Below the pieces are notes generated by a model, which saw only the letters and a list, made by a program, of their open reading frames with translations, was not told the DNA's origin and ran no database searches. The position numbers were made by a program, and so were the translations under genes. Shown here piece by piece: positions 28,969-36,511 of a stretch of 47,255 bases of DNA. The DNA lies in the IMG/VR virus record IMGVR_UViG_3300042890_003920; one strand, written 5' to 3'. The stretch comes from a virus. Its lineage: Duplodnaviria; Heunggongvirae; Uroviricota; Caudoviricetes. The first letter of the stretch is position 1. Each line of letters opens with the position of its first letter.

Positions 28969-29207
28969 TATTCGTCTTTATATTTGGTTGTTAAGTGATA
29001 GTAATCACATTGATCACATCTATATGCTACTAAGGTTGTATCTTTTTTAGGATATGTTCTATTTAAGTATTCTGCATTTACCTGTGCCAATGTAAGAGTT
29101 TCCCATCTTACTTTAGGTGTTTTATTTGCAGATATACAGATTTCATTTTTTTCTTCCATATGTATTCTTGCGGTTTTTGGAAAAACCAATTCACTTTTTT
29201 CTTGCAT
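28968..29207 (-). CDS. Small putative Zn-binding protein (AYRCDQCDYYHLT)
   Basis: Start reset to MQEK at 29207, just after TATCTTTG at 29212-29219. Confidence 0.7.
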   Translation of the reverse strand: MQEKSELVFPKTARIHMEEKNEICISANKTPKVRWETLTLAQVNAEYLNRTYPKKDTTLVAYRCDQCDYYHLTTKYKDE

Positions 29208-29222
29208 AGTGCAAAGATAATA

Positions 29223-29257
29223 AAAAAATCCCAAAAGAACTAACTTTTGGGATTTTT
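29223..29257. terminator. Intrinsic terminator closing the tRNA/ncRNA transcript
   Basis: AAAATCCCAAAAG/CTTTTGGGATTTT stem. Confidence 0.85.
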
Positions 29258-29266
29258 CTTTCTAAA

Positions 29267-29349
29267 TGGTGGAGCTCAACCTTCCATTCGCGGGAAGGTC
29301 TATCCACCTCGGTTACGTTTCCACTAAGGAAAGAGGCTTGACCGGCACC
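29267..29349 (-). ncRNA. Unclassified structured RNA, 83 nt, ending AGCTCCACCA
   Basis: 46/83 G+C by hand count in an AT-rich genome; ACCTTCC-CGCGAAT-GGAAGGT and TTTCC-TTAGT-GGAAA hairpins; lies between tRNA-Cys and a terminator. Confidence 0.55.
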
Positions 29350-29358
29350 TGAGATATG

Positions 29359-29428
29359 AGGCAGAAAAAGGAATCGAACCTCTGTGTAGGAACTTGCGGT
29401 TCCTCGCCTAACACTCAGCCATTCTGCC
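29359..29428 (-). tRNA. tRNA-Cys(GCA), atypical
   Basis: Acceptor GGCAGAA/TTCTGCC, discriminator U, anticodon stem AGGAA/TTCCT with loop CCGCAAG, T-loop TTCGATT; promoter TATCTTTG at 29441-29448. Confidence 0.85.
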
Positions 29429-29472
29429 ATTATTGTTCTACAAAGATATAACTTTTTTTATATAATAAAAAA

Positions 29473-30108
29473 TTATTTTGTTGTTAAAATTAATCTGTCG
29501 ATTCCAAGCGCAAAACCAACACCACCTTCGTAAGAACCTCCACCACAAATTTGTTTTTGTGCTCCTAATTCTGGACAAGAAATTTCAAACCCTTTACCAC
29601 CAGTATAGTAGTCAAGACCTCTTGTTGCGTCTAAGTTTACTTCATAGTTATCAGTTGCTAACTCAATTAGTTTAGTTGAAATTTCTAACATTTCATCTGT
29701 CATATCTTCAGTTGGGTTGATTACTTCAACTCCAAATTGTGTGAATTGACGGTAACGCCCTGCCTGTGGTTTTTCTCCACGAAAGCATTCTCCAATATAG
29801 AATAACTTAACATTCTTTGTCATTTTAAATGTTTCGTTGGCCAGTTGTTGTACTATGGCAGTGTATTCCGGTGCCAAACAGATGTCTCTGTTACCTCTAT
29901 CGGTAAATGTGTACATCATGTTGTTATTTTCTTCACCTACTTTACTTGCAAATGTTTCAGTTAATTGAATAACTGGGATCATCATTTCTTGATAACCATA
30001 AGATTCCATAATCTCAATCATTTGATTTAGTAATCGTCTTTTGTTTCTAGCGGTTTCACCAAAAACTATTCTTGTTCCTTTGTATGTTTTACTTGTTTTA
30101 ATTTCCAT
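29473..30108 (-). CDS. hisS: Minimal histidyl-tRNA synthetase-like protein (211 aa, catalytic core only)
   Basis: Motif 1 IPVI, motif 2 FRGEKPQAGRYRQFTQFGVE, RGLDYYTG, GGGSY, motif 3 GFALGIDRL followed by stop; start reset to MEIK at 30108. Confidence 0.85.
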   Translation of the reverse strand: MEIKTSKTYKGTRIVFGETARNKRRLLNQMIEIMESYGYQEMMIPVIQLTETFASKVGEENNNMMYTFTDRGNRDICLAPEYTAIVQQLANETFKMTKNVKLFYIGECFRGEKPQAGRYRQFTQFGVEVINPTEDMTDEMLEISTKLIELATDNYEVNLDATRGLDYYTGGKGFEISCPELGAQKQICGGGSYEGGVGFALGIDRLILTTK

Positions 30109-30133: not shown

Positions 30134-30164
30134 AAAAAAGCCCAGATCATTATAATCTGGGCTT
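30134..30164 (-). terminator. Attenuator terminator upstream of the hisS-like gene
   Basis: AAGCCCAGAT-TATAATG-ATCTGGGCTT followed by a T tract. Confidence 0.9.
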
Positions 30165-30196: not shown

Positions 30197-30253
30197 TTAC
30201 GACCCAGATTTCTCTGTGTGGTGATGTAGTTTATATGTTGTTTTCATTTTCAT
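30197..30253 (-). CDS. His leader peptide MKMKTTYKLHHHTEKSGS
   Basis: CAT-CAC-CAC; its 3' AATCTGGGT can pair with the terminator 5' arm GCCCAGATT; promoter TATATTTG at 30258-30265. Confidence 0.85.
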   Translation of the reverse strand: MKMKTTYKLHHHTEKSGS

Positions 30254-30312
30254 ACTGCAAATATATTACTTTTTATTGTGAATAAAAAATTTGTTTAACT
30301 TTTTCTTGAGAA

Positions 30313-31113
30313 TTAGAGTAAACTAGTGGTTATTTCTAATATTTTTTGAGCGACTAAAATCGCATCTTCTTCATTTAAAACTCCTTCATTTGGTTGTCTA
30401 GCAACAACTACATAAATAATTCTACTTCTATCATCTATTCCACTTATTCTATGATCATCATCTTGGGAGCTTGTATCATATTCTTGTATTATTCCAGTAG
30501 AAGGTCCAGGAACTAAAATTAGTTGATTAATTGATGGATCACCTTCACCATCATCAGTATTAGTTTTGTAAAAAAGTGTCCAATCAGGAATAACAGATTC
30601 TACATAACCTGCACCAATACCATTACCATCAGATCCAACATTACCGCTTATATTAAACTCAGATACTGATATACCATCAGCCATCATTATAAATAACCCA
30701 GGATACATATTAGTAAAATATTTGGATCCACTACCAAAATAAGAATCTCCTGATTCTATTTTTCCATCCATTGGTGGATTATTATATTCTTCATCATCAT
30801 TATCAGTTTCTGCTTGTGTGTGGGTGTATAGAATACTTGCAATTTCAAGTGATTCTTCACCTTCAATTTGTCCTTCTTTTATATTATCCCAATTTGCAGT
30901 TAAATTAGTATTCATAAAGTTTGCACCATCATACATATCATCACCACCATCACTTATTCCAGTTAATATAGTACTACTTATTTTATCATCCCAAAAGTTG
31001 TATATGTTTGGAACCAAAGCAGTAACTTCACTATATCTTAAATTCATACTATTTAGAGCGGTTTCTATCCAACCACCTCCTTTAAAACTTGTTCCTATTA
31101 TTGATTGTATCAT
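30313..31113 (-). CDS. Acidic adhesin/fibre-associated protein with MIQSIIGTSF N-terminus
   Basis: Shared N-terminal peptide; domain similar to an internal part of 36530..40870. Confidence 0.75.
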   Translation of the reverse strand: MIQSIIGTSFKGGGWIETALNSMNLRYSEVTALVPNIYNFWDDKISSTILTGISDGGDDMYDGANFMNTNLTANWDNIKEGQIEGEESLEIASILYTHTQAETDNDDEEYNNPPMDGKIESGDSYFGSGSKYFTNMYPGLFIMMADGISVSEFNISGNVGSDGNGIGAGYVESVIPDWTLFYKTNTDDGEGDPSINQLILVPGPSTGIIQEYDTSSQDDDHRISGIDDRSRIIYVVVARQPNEGVLNEEDAILVAQKILEITTSLL

Positions 31114-31123
31114 CTATTTTTAT

Positions 31124-32173
31124 TTATTTTATACTAGGATCACTTAAATCAATTGCCCAGTCATAACTACCGGGAAAATTCAAATAGGTAGAAACTCCAT
31201 CAAAGTATATACTACCACTACCATCTGAGAATGGTGATTGAGAACTCCAAGTTCCCCCTATTACAGATGCAACATGATTGCCTGTACTATCAATAAAAGT
31301 AGTATTTGATGATGTTACTGATAATAGTAATTTTGTTTCTGTATAATCTACTGGATTTAAAGGTGTTGTTGATGGTGTAAAATTACCATTATATTTTACA
31401 ATACCTTTCAAAAAATGAAAGTTAGTTAAATAACCATAAAATTTTTGACCTGAACCGCCACCAATTTGTAAATCACTTGTATTATCTAGTATTAGTCTAT
31501 TACTAGAATTATAGAAAAGTCTTGTACCATCTTTATATAGTTCTAATGTATTACTATTTCTAACTATTGCAAAGTGTACCCATGTATTATATAAATCTGA
31601 TATATTCTGAAATGCGTAATCAGAACCAAAACCACCACCAGTCCAAACAATAAGTCTATTACCTTGTACCTCTTCACTAAAACCAATAGATTCTCCTGGA
31701 TTATTACCAACATCAAATAGTCTATCAACATTTTCTCCTATACTACCTGTCATTTTTTGCCACCACTCTATTGTAAAGTTATTAGTAAGTGTAGTAACCC
31801 ATACATCTGATAATAGATTTAAGAAACCACCATATAATGAATATCCTATATAAATATTAAAGGATATCTCACCAGTATTAGGTGTTAAAGTAAATTGACC
31901 TCCTAATGTACCACTTCCATCATTATATAATTGTAGTGTATCATTATCCATATTTTCAACAAATTGATATGCTCTGCTATTTGAAGGTGATGTACCATCA
32001 ATCCACCAGTAAAGAAAAGTTCCCTCACTAACACCAGTTATACCACTTATAGTAAATGTTATTGTAGTTCCCTCTAGTGGATTATAATTATTAGCCACAA
32101 ATGTTGGTGTACTTGGAGGTGTACCTCCACCTCCTCCACCTGTAAAACTTGTTCCTATTATTGATTGTATCAT
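31124..32173 (-). CDS. LamG/concanavalin-like domain protein with MIQSIIGTSF N-terminus
   Basis: FTIEWW, WVHFAIVRN....LYKDG, LQIGG, FYGYLTNF. Confidence 0.8.
   Translation of the reverse strand: MIQSIIGTSFTGGGGGGTPPSTPTFVANNYNPLEGTTITFTISGITGVSEGTFLYWWIDGTSPSNSRAYQFVENMDNDTLQLYNDGSGTLGGQFTLTPNTGEISFNIYIGYSLYGGFLNLLSDVWVTTLTNNFTIEWWQKMTGSIGENVDRLFDVGNNPGESIGFSEEVQGNRLIVWTGGGFGSDYAFQNISDLYNTWVHFAIVRNSNTLELYKDGTRLFYNSSNRLILDNTSDLQIGGGSGQKFYGYLTNFHFLKGIVKYNGNFTPSTTPLNPVDYTETKLLLSVTSSNTTFIDSTGNHVASVIGGTWSSQSPFSDGSGSIYFDGVSTYLNFPGSYDWAIDLSDPSIK
31815..32173 (-). repeat. Copy A of a ~350-bp N-terminal module shared with 36160-36511
   Basis: Near-identical NYNP.EGTTITFTISGITGVSEGT.LYWWIDGTS...FNIYIGYSLYGGFLNL at protein and DNA level. 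Confidence 0.85.
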
Positions 32174-32191: not shown

Positions 32192-35100
32192 TTATACAGT
32201 AACAGTCCATCCTTTAGAAATTAGTATAGTCTGTAAGTTTGTTCCTGATACGGAATTTATATTACCAGTAAATTGTACATTACCACGTCCAGGAATAACA
32301 CTCATTGCATTAGCCCATGGTTCAGATGCTGTATAGCCTGCTGTTGTCATTTGGCTACTATTAAACCATAGAGTAGTTATTGAACTTGGTAATGGATTCG
32401 TAGGATTAAATGATACAATTTGAGTTTGACTTAAATATAAAGTTAACAATCCACTTGGTAATGCCAAAGTTGGATTAAATGATGTTATAGGATTTTGTGA
32501 TACATTTAAAATTTTTAATGTACTTGGCAATGCCAACGTTGGATTAAATGATGATATACCTGTCTGTTGTAACCCTAATTCATTTAATAAACTTGGTAAA
32601 GGATTTACTGGATTAAATGTTCCAATAGTTGGATTAAAATTTAAATTTAAATATCTCAATGAACTTGGCCATACATGATTATTGATTGCACTAGTTAAAG
32701 AGTTTGATGATAAAAATAAATTCTGTAATGTATTAGGTAATTTTGATACATCAATTGATGTTATAAAATTATTACTTGCATAAAAAGAGATCAATGAACT
32801 TGGTAATGAGAATGTTGGATTAAGTGATGTTAGCTGACATTGTTCTAAATATAGTGTATGTATTCCATTTGGTAAAGGAACACTTGGATTGAAATTACCA
32901 CCTAATGGATTTGTAGTTATGTTTAAAAATGTCAATCCAGTTGGTAATTTAGTATAATTCATATTAGCTCCTGTAATACCATTACCAGTTATACTTAAAG
33001 AAGACATTGAGTTAGGTAATGGGTTTGTAGGATTAAATGATAATGTATTATTATTTTTTGCGCTTAGCTGTGTTAAATTAGGAGGCCAATTGATACTATT
33101 AAATGTTGATCCTAATTGATTAGAATCTACAGTAAGCACTTGTAAATTATTAAATATAGAAGTGGAAGAGAGTGTAACAATTGATGGAATTTGATTACTT
33201 ATTAAATTAAGAGATGTTTTTATTGGTATATTTCCAAGTGCATTTATCTGTGTAATTTGTAATGCTCTTAAATTATAAGTACTTGACGTGGAAGTAGCAT
33301 ATAGATTACATTGTATTCTTTTTTGTACACCTGATACTGTAGTTATTGAAAATCCTGTAATAACCAAATTTGTTAAATAATTATAATTATTAGAAGGATC
33401 ACGTCCAGTTTCTAAGAACGTTCTAAACGATGCTTCATCTGTTACAGCTGGTGTTGTCAAAGACCAATTAGCTGTTACGTCAAATGGTAGTAGATTAGGA
33501 TCTCCTTCAACTGTCCATCCTTTACTAACTAATATTGATTCAAGATTCGTGCTTATTACACCATCTACATTATCATTAAAATCAATTGTACCTCTTCCAG
33601 GAATCACAGACATTGAACTAGCCCATGACTCTGATGCAGTGTAACCTGCTGTTGTCATTTGATTACCATTTAAATACAAATATTGTAATGAATTAGGTAA
33701 TGCTATACTTGGATCAAATGTAACAATGTCATTACCGTATAAATACAAACGTTGTAATCCACTAGGTAATGCTATACTTGGATCAAATGTTACAATTTGA
33801 TTACCGTCTAAACGTAAATCTTGTAATAAATTAGGTAATGCTTGAGTTGGATCAAATGTCACAATGTAATTACCACCTAAATATAACTGTTGTAATCCAG
33901 TAGGTAATACAGTTGGATCAAATGTAACTATTTGATTATTAACTAAAATCAATGATTGTAAGCCATATAATGGTAATGTTGGATTAAATGTCACTATTTG
34001 ATTATTTGATAACACTAACACTTGTAATGAATTAGGTAATGCTATACTTGGATCAAATGTAACTATTTGATTATTGTCTAAAAATAAATACCATAATGAA
34101 TTAGGTAATGTTATAGTTGGATCAAATGTTACTATTTGATTATTGTTTAGACGTAACTGTTGTAAACCGATAATATTTCCGAAAGACACTATATCTGAAA
34201 TTTGAATATTATTTAGATATAAGATTGTTCCAGTTGCAGAAAGATTACAAATCAATCTACCATTAACAAGTGAAAAGTCAGTAATGACTACATCAGTTAA
34301 ACTGTTTGTGCTTCCACCTCCATCTTCTCCACTTTCTAAAAATGTTATAAAAGATGCTTCATCAACAACTTCTGGTGTTGTCAACCCCCAATTAGCGGTT
34401 ACGTCAAATGGTAGTTGAGCAGGATCCCCTTGAACTGTCCATCCTTTACTAACTAATATCGATTCGAGATTCGTGCTTATTACACCATCTACATTATTAT
34501 TAAATTGTACAGTACCACGTCCTGGTATAACACTCATAGAATTAGCCCAAGATTCAGAAGCAGTGTAACCTGCTGTTGTCATTTGATTATTATTTAAATT
34601 TAAATTAACTAATGAATCTGGAAGCGGAATGTTAGGATTAAATGTAACTATTTGATTATTATTTAAAATTAAATTAACTAATGAATCTGGGAGCGGAATG
34701 TTAGGATTAAATGTAACTATTTGATTATTGTTTATATAGAAAGTTTGTAATCCACTAGGTAAAGGTATTGTTGGATCAAATGTAACTATTTGATTATTGT
34801 CTAAAGATAAATTTTGTAATCCAGTAGGTAATGCTATAGTTGGATCAAATGTAACTATTTGATTACTGTTTAAATATAAATTTTGTAATCCACTTGGCCA
34901 TGTTACATTATCAAATGATGTAATACTATTATTACTTACATCAATGCTAGTTACACCAATTGGCCAAGATGTATTATCAACAGATAGAATATTATTACTA
35001 TACAAATATAAAGTACCATTCATTTGTAAGTTTCCAAACGATGTAGCATCTGTCACACCCATTAATGCAAATCCTAAATCATTTCCTCCAGTAGAGGAAA

Positions 35101-36127
35101 GATTACATCTTAATCTATTTCCTTCAAGTAAGAAATCAGTTACTACAACACCTGTTTGGCTATTTGTGTTACCATCACCATCTTCTCCACTCTCTAAAAA
35201 TGTTATAAAAGATGCTTCATTTGTTACAGGTGGTGTTGTCAAGCTCCAGTTAGCGGTTACGTCAAATGGTAGTTGAGCAGGATCCCCTTCAACTGTCCAT
35301 CCTTTACTAACTAATATCGATTCAAGATTCGTGTCTATTACACCATTTATATTATTATTAAAATCAATTGTGCCTCTGTTAGGTATAACACTCATTGCAT
35401 TAGCCCATGTTTCAGAAGCAGTGTAACCTGCTGTTGTCATTTGATTATTGTCTAGATACAATTCTTGTAATGAATTAGGTAATGCTATACTTGGGTCAAA
35501 TGTAACAATGTCATTATTGTTTAAATATAACTGTTGTAATCCACTAGGTAATGCTATAGTTGGGTCAAATGTCACTATTTGATTACCAAATAAAAGTAAA
35601 CCTTGTAATGAATTAGGTAATGCTATACTTGGGTCAAATGTAACTATTTGATTATTACCTAAATATAAATTTTGTAAGCTACTTGGTAATGCTATACTTG
35701 GATCAAATGTAACTATTTGATTACCAGTTAAGTCTAAATTTATTAAAGAACTAGGTAATGCAATAGTTGGATCAAATGTAACTATTTGATTACTGTTTAA
35801 ATATAAAGTTTGTAATGAATTAGGTAATGCAATAGTTGTGTCAAATGTAACTATTTGATTATCTAATAAACGTAACTGTTGTAGACCTATAATATTACCA
35901 AAAGACACTATATCTGAAATTTGAATATTATTTAGATATAAGATTGTTCCAGTAGCGGAAAGATTACAAATCAGTCTACCATTAACAAGTGAGAAGTTTG
36001 TAATAACTACATCTGTTAAACTACTTGGGCTACCATCACCATCACCACCACTTTCTAAAAATGTTCTAAAAGATTCTTCGTCAACAACAGGTGGTGTTGT
36101 CAAACTCCAATTTGCAGTTACATCAAA
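32192..36127 (-). repeat. Nested repeats: 66-bp LRR units within four modules (861, 858, 924 and ~1293 bp)
   Basis: Module starts at 36127, 35266, 34408, 33484; recurring plus-strand GGATCAAATGTAACTATTTGATT. Confidence 0.85.
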
Positions 36128-36511
36128 AGTAATATTTTCAATTACAACTACATCAGATGGTAGATTTAAGAAACCACCATATAAACTATATCCTATATAA
36201 ATATTAAAATCTATATCTCCTTGATTAGGTGTTAGAGTAAATGTACCACTTAATGTACCGTCTTTTTCAAGTGATAGTTGTAGTGTATCATTATCCTTAT
36301 TCTCAACAAATTGATCAGCTCTACTAAATTGACCTGATGTTCCATCTATCCACCAGTAAAGTGTGGTTCCCTCACTAACACCAGTTATACCACTTATGGT
36401 AAATGTTATTGTAGTTCCCTCTATTGGGTTATAATTACTGGCTACAAATGTTACAGGAGGTGGATTATAACCACCTCCTGTAAAACTTGTTCCTATTATA
36501 GATTGTATCAT
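32192..36511 (-). CDS. 1439-aa leucine-rich-repeat protein, four capped LRR modules
   Basis: 22-aa repeat LPNSLQxLxLxxNQIVTFDPxIA; modules open with FDVTANW and close with SKGWTV. Confidence 0.9.
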   Translation of the reverse strand: MIQSIIGTSFTGGGYNPPPVTFVASNYNPIEGTTITFTISGITGVSEGTTLYWWIDGTSGQFSRADQFVENKDNDTLQLSLEKDGTLSGTFTLTPNQGDIDFNIYIGYSLYGGFLNLPSDVVVIENITFDVTANWSLTTPPVVDEESFRTFLESGGDGDGSPSSLTDVVITNFSLVNGRLICNLSATGTILYLNNIQISDIVSFGNIIGLQQLRLLDNQIVTFDTTIALPNSLQTLYLNSNQIVTFDPTIALPSSLINLDLTGNQIVTFDPSIALPSSLQNLYLGNNQIVTFDPSIALPNSLQGLLLFGNQIVTFDPTIALPSGLQQLYLNNNDIVTFDPSIALPNSLQELYLDNNQMTTAGYTASETWANAMSVIPNRGTIDFNNNINGVIDTNLESILVSKGWTVEGDPAQLPFDVTANWSLTTPPVTNEASFITFLESGEDGDGNTNSQTGVVVTDFLLEGNRLRCNLSSTGGNDLGFALMGVTDATSFGNLQMNGTLYLYSNNILSVDNTSWPIGVTSIDVSNNSITSFDNVTWPSGLQNLYLNSNQIVTFDPTIALPTGLQNLSLDNNQIVTFDPTIPLPSGLQTFYINNNQIVTFNPNIPLPDSLVNLILNNNQIVTFNPNIPLPDSLVNLNLNNNQMTTAGYTASESWANSMSVIPGRGTVQFNNNVDGVISTNLESILVSKGWTVQGDPAQLPFDVTANWGLTTPEVVDEASFITFLESGEDGGGSTNSLTDVVITDFSLVNGRLICNLSATGTILYLNNIQISDIVSFGNIIGLQQLRLNNNQIVTFDPTITLPNSLWYLFLDNNQIVTFDPSIALPNSLQVLVLSNNQIVTFNPTLPLYGLQSLILVNNQIVTFDPTVLPTGLQQLYLGGNYIVTFDPTQALPNLLQDLRLDGNQIVTFDPSIALPSGLQRLYLYGNDIVTFDPSIALPNSLQYLYLNGNQMTTAGYTASESWASSMSVIPGRGTIDFNDNVDGVISTNLESILVSKGWTVEGDPNLLPFDVTANWSLTTPAVTDEASFRTFLETGRDPSNNYNYLTNLVITGFSITTVSGVQKRIQCNLYATSTSSTYNLRALQITQINALGNIPIKTSLNLISNQIPSIVTLSSTSIFNNLQVLTVDSNQLGSTFNSINWPPNLTQLSAKNNNTLSFNPTNPLPNSMSSLSITGNGITGANMNYTKLPTGLTFLNITTNPLGGNFNPSVPLPNGIHTLYLEQCQLTSLNPTFSLPSSLISFYASNNFITSIDVSKLPNTLQNLFLSSNSLTSAINNHVWPSSLRYLNLNFNPTIGTFNPVNPLPSLLNELGLQQTGISSFNPTLALPSTLKILNVSQNPITSFNPTLALPSGLLTLYLSQTQIVSFNPTNPLPSSITTLWFNSSQMTTAGYTASEPWANAMSVIPGRGNVQFTGNINSVSGTNLQTILISKGWTVTV

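Follow-up and report, generated by a model that had tools for sequence, protein, structure and literature searches.

A histidyl-tRNA synthetase-like catalytic core, without insertion or anticodon-binding domain and behind a histidine-codon leader, in a huge freshwater phage

Can half of a histidyl-tRNA synthetase (HisRS) still work as one? The question is raised by a gene on a tailed-phage DNA stretch of 47,255 nucleotides (IMG/VR record IMGVR_UViG_3300042890_003920; the whole stretch is called the window below). Its product, P0001, is 211 aa long, against about 420 aa for bacterial HisRS, and consists of the class II catalytic core alone (Table 1). It must first be asked whether such a gene is intact, then whether its residues and fold are those of an enzyme, and finally what it could do for the phage.

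Extent of the gene and spread of its family

The preliminary description read the open reading frame as 211 codons that stop five residues past GIDRL. Translation agrees, the C-terminus being ...GIDRL, then ILTTK and the stop codon, five residues past motif 3. At the other end, a 225-aa frame from the ATG at 30150 was rejected as the start, as it begins within the terminator hairpin; the MEIK start is common to all upstream-diverged relatives (L006-L012 and LR745206), and 30108 is therefore taken as the real start. In profile searches, P0001 scores 92.2 bits with Pfam tRNA-synt_His, above the cut-off of 25. With NCBIfam hisS (TIGR00442) it scores 167 bits, below the equivalog cut-off of 286.75 because half of the model is absent from P0001, and with NCBIfam hisZ (TIGR00443) it scores 106.4 bits, which is below both the cut-off of 271.65 and the hisS score. 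The PHROGs search gave no meaningful family for it.

The missing half can be delimited with a profile of 31 family members, which covers E. coli HisRS residues 6-154 and 241-317 only, and the earlier view that this is a natural HisRS core lacking the insertion and anticodon-binding domains is thereby upheld. Absent from P0001 are about 86 residues corresponding to E. coli HisRS ~155-240, including the helical insertion domain, in whose place about 18 residues join the two matched blocks; about 11 residues ahead of motif 3; and the whole anticodon-binding domain (E. coli HisRS 320-424). Against PDB chains, the same profile gives an E-value of 3e-41 for HisRS versus 2.7e-18 and 1.5e-16 for HisZ. 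The missing parts were also sought in trans, by tblastn and by HMM, the latter built for the anticodon-binding domain from the C-termini of 72 full-length HisRS. Neither an HGTP_anticodon or other anticodon-binding domain in any frame of the window nor an insertion domain supplied from elsewhere in it was found, and no coding remnant of the anticodon-binding domain lies 3' of the mini-HisRS stop or at any other place in the window.

The short form belongs to a large family. A word-indexed search gave at least 1,952 related proteins of 116-370 aa, and the nearest 120, from many samples, are 87-100% identical to P0001 and about 210-225 aa long. When the 50%-identity representatives were searched exhaustively, about 45 of the best 150 had ~200-240 aa and matched P0001 end to end, and dozens of clusters of ~200-225 aa, with 33-60% identity from end to end, ranked better than every full-length HisRS. 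A maximum-likelihood tree was made quickly and left unrooted; in it, a single branch with 100% SH-aLRT separates 31 mini proteins from 45 full-length HisRS; a single origin of the mini family is compatible with this and is short of proven, because the tree is unrooted and the search was short. The mini-HisRS sequence or parts of it occur in runs of 16 studies, mostly of lake water, estuary and runoff, and relatives are encoded on 18 IMG/VR viral contigs.

Selection and independent reads bear on whether the gene is intact. Between P0001 and three close relatives, dN/dS is 0.026-0.050 at dS of 0.39-0.58. The check for a frameshift that the preliminary description called for was made on contigs of two lake-water metagenome runs from different studies, one of which may be the source sample of the window: they tile the ORF without internal indel, and the indels found in these contigs (at 29221, 29430 and 30121) all lie outside it. 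With dN/dS of 0.03-0.05, indel-free contigs and at least 1,952 relatives, the possibility raised there that the truncation is an assembly error, a frameshift or a recent pseudogene does not hold, as far as sequence can tell. A metatranscriptome contig of a lake run (156 nt, covering 29858-30004 at ~95% identity) was not counted as expression, being too little and possibly DNA carry-over.

As for the carrier, the gene itself is matched at DNA level, within the phage collection, only by two uncultured phages (634,780 and 642,428 bp), at 73-76% identity; the other DNA-level match, to Flavobacterium phages, concerns a neighbouring gene. Identical or near-identical proteins are found on contigs of up to 648 kb, and the source of the window is a huge freshwater phage. 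The presence of tRNA synthetases in huge phages is, in general terms, already known, from a report whose main text is silent on truncated forms (PMC7162821).

Table 1. Features at the mini-HisRS locus (window positions) and residues of P0001 set beside those of Thermus thermophilus HisRS
Feature	Position or residues in P0001	Strand	Remarks
Mini-HisRS CDS	29473..30108	-	211 aa (P0001); class II catalytic core alone; zero His residues
Leader ORF	30197..30253	-	18 codons, MKMKTTYKLHHHTEKSGS and stop; three consecutive His codons at 30218-30226
Putative antiterminator arm, AAUCUGGG	30203..30210	-	Last part of the leader ORF; partner of the terminator's 5' arm in the alternative fold
Predicted intrinsic terminator hairpin	30138..30164	-	12 pairs, then U-run; between leader and mini-HisRS start
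TATATTTG, lookalike of the Bacteroidota -7 promoter box	30258..30265	-	4 nt before the leader ATG; lead only
83-nt structured element	29268-29350	-	Between tRNA-Cys (29358-29428) and terminator 29222-29259; ends CCACCA
Histidine pocket	T83, E128, G189-G191, G198-F199		T. thermophilus Thr83, Glu130, Gly284-Gly285, Gly304-Phe305 (PMC4357726)
G-1 and G1 contacts	K113 (family consensus Arg), R120, K10		T. thermophilus Arg115, Arg122, Arg7 (PMC4357726)
3'-end contacts	E112, Q115, R118		T. thermophilus Glu114, Gln117, Arg120 (PMC4357726)
G-1 pocket from the other subunit	D70-R71-G72-N73		T. thermophilus D-R-G-G loop (PMC4357726)

Active site, tRNA contacts and predicted dimer

In P0001, the invariant Pro of class II motif 1 is P80, within L-A-P-E; motif 2 contributes R110, E112, R118, R120, Q124 and E128; the HisA loop reads R163-G-L-D-Y-Y168 and the HisB loop G189-G-G-S-Y193; and motif 3 runs G198-F...R205. 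P80, R110, R118 and R205 align with solved HisRS structures and, with some exceptions, are conserved in at least 90% of the family, and the alignment confirms that the motif 2 Arg, RGLDYY, GGG.Y and the motif 3 Arg, noticed earlier from the letters alone, are all retained. Motif 2, HisA, HisB and the motif 3 Arg are likewise kept in most of the 31 members, which are only 32-55% identical to P0001. Six proteins (P0129, P0151, P0152, P0154, P0234 and P0262) have degenerate motif 2 or HisA loops; therefore, catalysis is not kept family-wide, and not every lineage need be an enzyme. A LAGLIDADG intein of some 350 aa splits another mini-HisRS, the representative P0122, precisely at the junction of Y82 with the His-binding T83 of motif 1; the first residue of the intein is Cys, its last two are His-Asn, and Thr follows it. 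Inteins typically persist in constrained active-site sequence.

The functional residues compared in Table 1 were taken from the structure of the T. thermophilus HisRS-tRNA-His complex (PMC4357726). As judged by alignment, P0001 retains those contacts to the acceptor end that fall within the core; at the D70-R71-G72-N73 loop, S. aureus HisRS has D-K-G-D-R. The contacts lost from P0001 lie in the insertion domain, and in T. thermophilus these matter little, because the insertion-domain mutants R197A and K209A stay active, the former with more than half of wild-type activity and the latter at a level comparable to wild type (PMC4357726). In the same species, the anticodon of tRNA-His is a much weaker identity element than G-1:C73 (PMC4357726).

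The AlphaFold model of P0001, made from the 31-sequence alignment, has a mean pLDDT of 91.5, and among PDB entries it comes closest to chains of E. coli HisRS, with a query-normalised TM of 0.85-0.88. The predicted fold is thus confidently HisRS-like, with the full antiparallel sheet and the flanking helices retained. Since the G-1 pocket needs a second subunit, it also matters whether the protein pairs. When two copies were predicted together, ipSAE was 0.86 versus 0.10 for the best control, a value that may reflect likeness to solved HisRS dimers; three runs shared at least 95% of contacts, and the partner had a pLDDT of 86. Among the calibration proteins, 20 of 30 solved homodimers and one of 23 solved as single chains came up to this mark, counts that hold only roughly here because our own alignment was used. 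The predicted interface involves residues 3-31, 40-52 and 66-78, as in class II dimers. A class-II-type homodimer is therefore predicted for P0001, and since HisRS dimers have already been solved, passing this mark shows likeness, not proof.

Set beside bacterial HisRS of class IIa (E. coli 1KMM and 2EL9, S. aureus 1QE0, T. thermophilus 4RDX), P0001 agrees in its predicted catalytic fold, all three class II motifs, both His-specific loops (HisA and HisB), those motif-2-loop residues that serve G-1:C73 and CCA, and the predicted dimer interface; it differs in the missing parts, in its length and in standing in a separate group in the quick tree. The engineered fragments of E. coli HisRS form a second comparison, for they show that a HisRS stripped of its anticodon-binding domain, or of the insertion domain as well, can still activate histidine (PMC3060492). 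The catalytic domain alone (Ncat, 1-320) is active at a level about 2000-fold lower, and in the designed urzymes of 119-145 residues activity is down 4-9x10^6-fold (PMC3060492). All of these were made in the laboratory, and their activity is 2x10^3- to 9x10^6-fold lower, whereas P0001 is natural, selected and widespread, and it keeps the HisA loop and motif 3, without which the smallest HisRS urzymes are built (PMC3060492). The label 'urzyme-like' given to it at first was overstated, as P0001 is a complete 211-aa class II core and not a designed excerpt of 119-145 residues.

The histidine-codon leader and the histidine-free product

Ahead of the gene, in the order of transcription, are TATATTTG, the leader ORF, AAUCUGGG, the terminator, a further 29 nt and the start codon. 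When the 3' arm of the terminator is left out of the calculated fold, AAUCUGGGU pairs with GCCCAGAUU at -13.1 kcal/mol; when it is included, the terminator fold wins. The arrangement combines His codons with predicted, mutually exclusive hairpins, as leader-peptide transcription attenuators do, and the His attenuator proposed in the preliminary description thus reappears, by sequence and folding, as a putative His-codon leader with a terminator.

Of the relatives, L001, L004 and L005 have kept this leader, and two or three His codons are present in their copies. L011, whose protein is 64% identical, has a different leader at the same place, with three His in 14 codons, and a different terminator, and it forms the same alternative pairing from different letters; the distance from the last His codon to the antiterminator arm is 9 nt both there and in the window. 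Other relatives are without the leader, and leader/terminator control is therefore a feature of a subclade. The his and trp leader attenuators (Rfam His_leader, RF00514) likewise combine a short leader ORF containing a His run, exclusive hairpins and a stop codon beside the antiterminator arm, but the phage leader has three His codons against seven in His_leader and stands ahead of a synthetase-like gene instead of a biosynthetic operon. Rfam gave no significant match at the mini-HisRS leader; the only His_leader matches in the region (30.1 and 20.3 bits, with a gathering score of 49) fall at the other terminator, at 29152-29318.

In addition, the absence of histidine from P0001 is shared by its 120 close relatives, by L006-L012 (down to 56% identity) and by the LR745206 copy, while distant mini-HisRS members have 0-8 His residues. 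At the 1.0% His of the window's other ORFs, the probability of no His in 211 residues is 0.12 for one protein. That a His-free composition persists over this divergence is suggestive, the sequences being related and so not independent evidence.

With regard to promoters, TAnnTTTG was tried as a signal and set aside, since its count in the window is not above chance; it is a positional lead only. Motifs of the form TATCTTTG also stand just before tRNA-Cys (29441-29448, minus strand) and just before the next ORF (29212-29219, minus strand). With TATCTTTG before each unit, each may have its own promoter; and as no terminator lies between the mini-HisRS stop and tRNA-Cys, co-transcription by read-through could also occur.

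Possible function and the neighbouring genes

The reading that we favour, at a probability of roughly 55%, is that P0001 is a working, homodimeric, anticodon-blind HisRS that charges tRNA-His by way of G-1:C73. P0001 would activate histidine to His-AMP in a complete HisRS active site and pass it on to tRNA-His. It would recognise this tRNA by its acceptor end alone, reading G-1:C73 and the CCA end with the motif 2 loop and with the D-R-G loop contributed by the other subunit, and would make no contact to the anticodon. In this phage, expression would be coupled to the charging level of tRNA-His: a ribosome stalled at the three leader His codons would leave the antiterminator arm free and permit read-through into the gene, and a ribosome that reaches the leader stop codon would cover that arm, so that the terminator forms. 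Being without histidine, P0001 could be made when His-tRNA-His is scarce, and it would then top up His-tRNA-His during infection. We infer catalysis, tRNA charging and attenuation from sequence, fold, conservation and context. Since the E. coli enzyme loses about 2000-fold without its anticodon-binding domain, a natural truncated enzyme may be too slow unless this is compensated.

The neighbourhood of related genes, in several phages one of translation, counts in favour of this reading. LR745206.1, a complete genome of 634,780 bp with 59 tRNA genes, has a single HisRS-like locus, the mini gene at 345,425-346,060, and in it the HGTP_anticodon domain was found in no frame by a search that was positive in 14 of 14 control genomes. 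ARAGORN places two tRNA-His(GTG) genes at 342,554-342,789, about 2.6 kb upstream of the mini gene; they open a tRNA array whose other end lies some 1.4 kb short of it. G-1 is encoded in both, and the first copy has C73. BLAST with the tRNA-His of L008 gave no match in LR745206.1, though ARAGORN calls two tRNA-His there. In L008 and L010, a tRNA-His with G-1:C73 lies within 1-2 kb of the mini gene. The window has no tRNA-His, only tRNA-Cys, and the close relatives L004 and L005, which are IMG/VR fragments 26-30% complete and hence uninformative on this point, show tRNA-Met and tRNA-Cys only. The gene directly upstream of mini-HisRS is an fmt-like formyltransferase gene in L012 (1234-2499), and in L009 (1-718) it is a KMSKS-bearing, class I synthetase-like gene.

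Some peculiarities of these tRNA genes may be recorded separately. In the second tRNA-His of LR745206.1 (342716-342789), G-1 apparently stands opposite A73 and not C73, the register having been read by eye. In the arrays beside mini-HisRS at L008:700-3260, L009:1518-1868 and L010:1660-1939, ARAGORN calls several tRNAs for Lys, Arg and Trp whose length (84-93 nt) is out of the ordinary, and also 'tRNA-???' genes with 2- or 4-base anticodons, which may be interrupted or odd tRNAs.

Among the alternatives, it is improbable, if the best of them, that P0001 activates histidine for an acceptor other than tRNA-His, in the manner of the SerRS-like amino acid:carrier-protein ligases or PoxA, or that its product is itself a signal or metabolite, either His-AMP or Ap4A. 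An intact adenylation site speaks for this, and the loss of tRNA-binding accessory domains usually marks synthetase paralogues that work outside translation (PMC9437257); moreover, the neighbourhood varies between phages, as in L013, where a Tad4-domain (Thoeris inhibitor) protein is encoded directly upstream (1617-2504) and its gene overlaps the mini-HisRS start. However, the loci examined contain neither a carrier protein nor a recurring partner gene, the mini gene repeatedly adjoins tRNA arrays containing tRNA-His, and those residues of the motif 2 loop and of the other subunit that contact G-1, C74 and A76 of tRNA-His are conserved, though adenylation alone would need none of them.

Slightly less probable again is a non-catalytic regulator, which would act like HisZ on the host ATP-phosphoribosyltransferase or would form a heterodimer with host HisRS by way of the class II interface and so modulate host translation. 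HisZ, the sole entry for HisRS in a 2022 review of synthetase paralogues, is an established HisRS paralogue that also lacks the anticodon-binding domain (PMC9437257), and it is tied to histidine supply, like the context of the mini family. The hisZ model scores 106 bits on P0001, histidine biosynthesis is classically controlled by a His attenuator, the predicted dimer interface is retained, and some members are without catalytic residues. Against this, HisZ has no adenylation activity (PMC9437257), and HisZ proteins are about 280-400 aa long and keep an insertion region, while the mini family keeps its catalytic residues, which are under strong purifying selection here. HisS is far ahead of HisZ both in score (167 vs 106 bits) and in the PDB E-values (3e-41 vs 2.7e-18), and HisG was not found in the complete genome of LR745206.1. 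That the gene is a truncated remnant of a full-length hisS, left by assembly error, frameshift or decay, has next to no probability: half the normal length and a score below the hisS cut-off are what a remnant would give, but the relatives come from many studies and about 45 of the best 150 representatives share the length end to end, dN/dS is low, the ORF is free of indels in two lake runs, the internal deletion is clean, the model is of high confidence, and no anticodon-binding-domain remnant is left in the window.

Returning to the anticodon-blind synthetase, a wider form of it can be put forward tentatively, at somewhat less than even odds: P0001 would be among the smallest natural aminoacyl-tRNA synthetases and would read only the 'operational code' of the acceptor stem, and the phage would sense the charging of host His-tRNA-His by its leader and answer with a His-free, anticodon-blind HisRS in a self-contained feedback loop. 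Such an enzyme could also charge phage tRNA-His variants or anticodon-damaged tRNA-His. No description of a natural mini-HisRS was found in the literature searched, the scope of that search being limited. What comes closest are the engineered fragments of HisRS (PMC3060492) and the mini-AlaRS of Tupanvirus (PMC10036535). The latter is also reported as a virus-encoded synthetase with natural loss of accessory domains, but it is a different synthetase, from a eukaryotic giant virus, and what it reportedly lacks is the editing domain (PMC10036535).

If the family is active, it would show the minimum of a natural class II synthetase and provide a selected, soluble counterpart to the urzymes and Ncat, and the reading of acceptor-stem identity by a catalytic core alone would become directly testable. 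An anticodon-blind HisRS of ~24 kDa would be a useful part for genetic-code engineering, and from a His-sensing attenuator before a synthetase gene it would follow that huge phages keep watch on tRNA charging and replenish it, beyond simply having spare genes for translation. Should it turn out to be inactive on tRNA, the family would be a second class of HisRS-derived paralogues after HisZ.

The 83-nt element downstream contains an 8-bp hairpin with a T-loop-like CGCGAAU loop and is almost unchanged across L001-L005. L006, an 84% identical relative, lacks it after tRNA-Cys, and contigs of run X15 skip it, joining 29257/29260 to 29357; it is therefore a strain-variable insertion. No evidence was found for the functional link of this RNA to the mini-HisRS that had been suggested, and the element is confined to the closest clade. 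As a tRNA or tmRNA it was rejected, since neither ARAGORN (including its relaxed and intron modes) nor Rfam calls one; the single intron-mode call there spans tRNA-Cys and is not credible. The loop taken as a putative 'anticodon' is UUAGU or UUCGU depending on the strain, and is therefore not an anticodon.

On the other side of the leader, three consecutive minus-strand ORFs (30313-31113, 31124-32173 and 32192-36511) have the N-terminus MIQSIIGTSF(K/T)GGG in common, and the 1439-aa ORF among them is full of NQIVTFDP-type leucine-rich-like repeats. The three have the look of exchangeable fibre or receptor-binding proteins grouped in a cassette.
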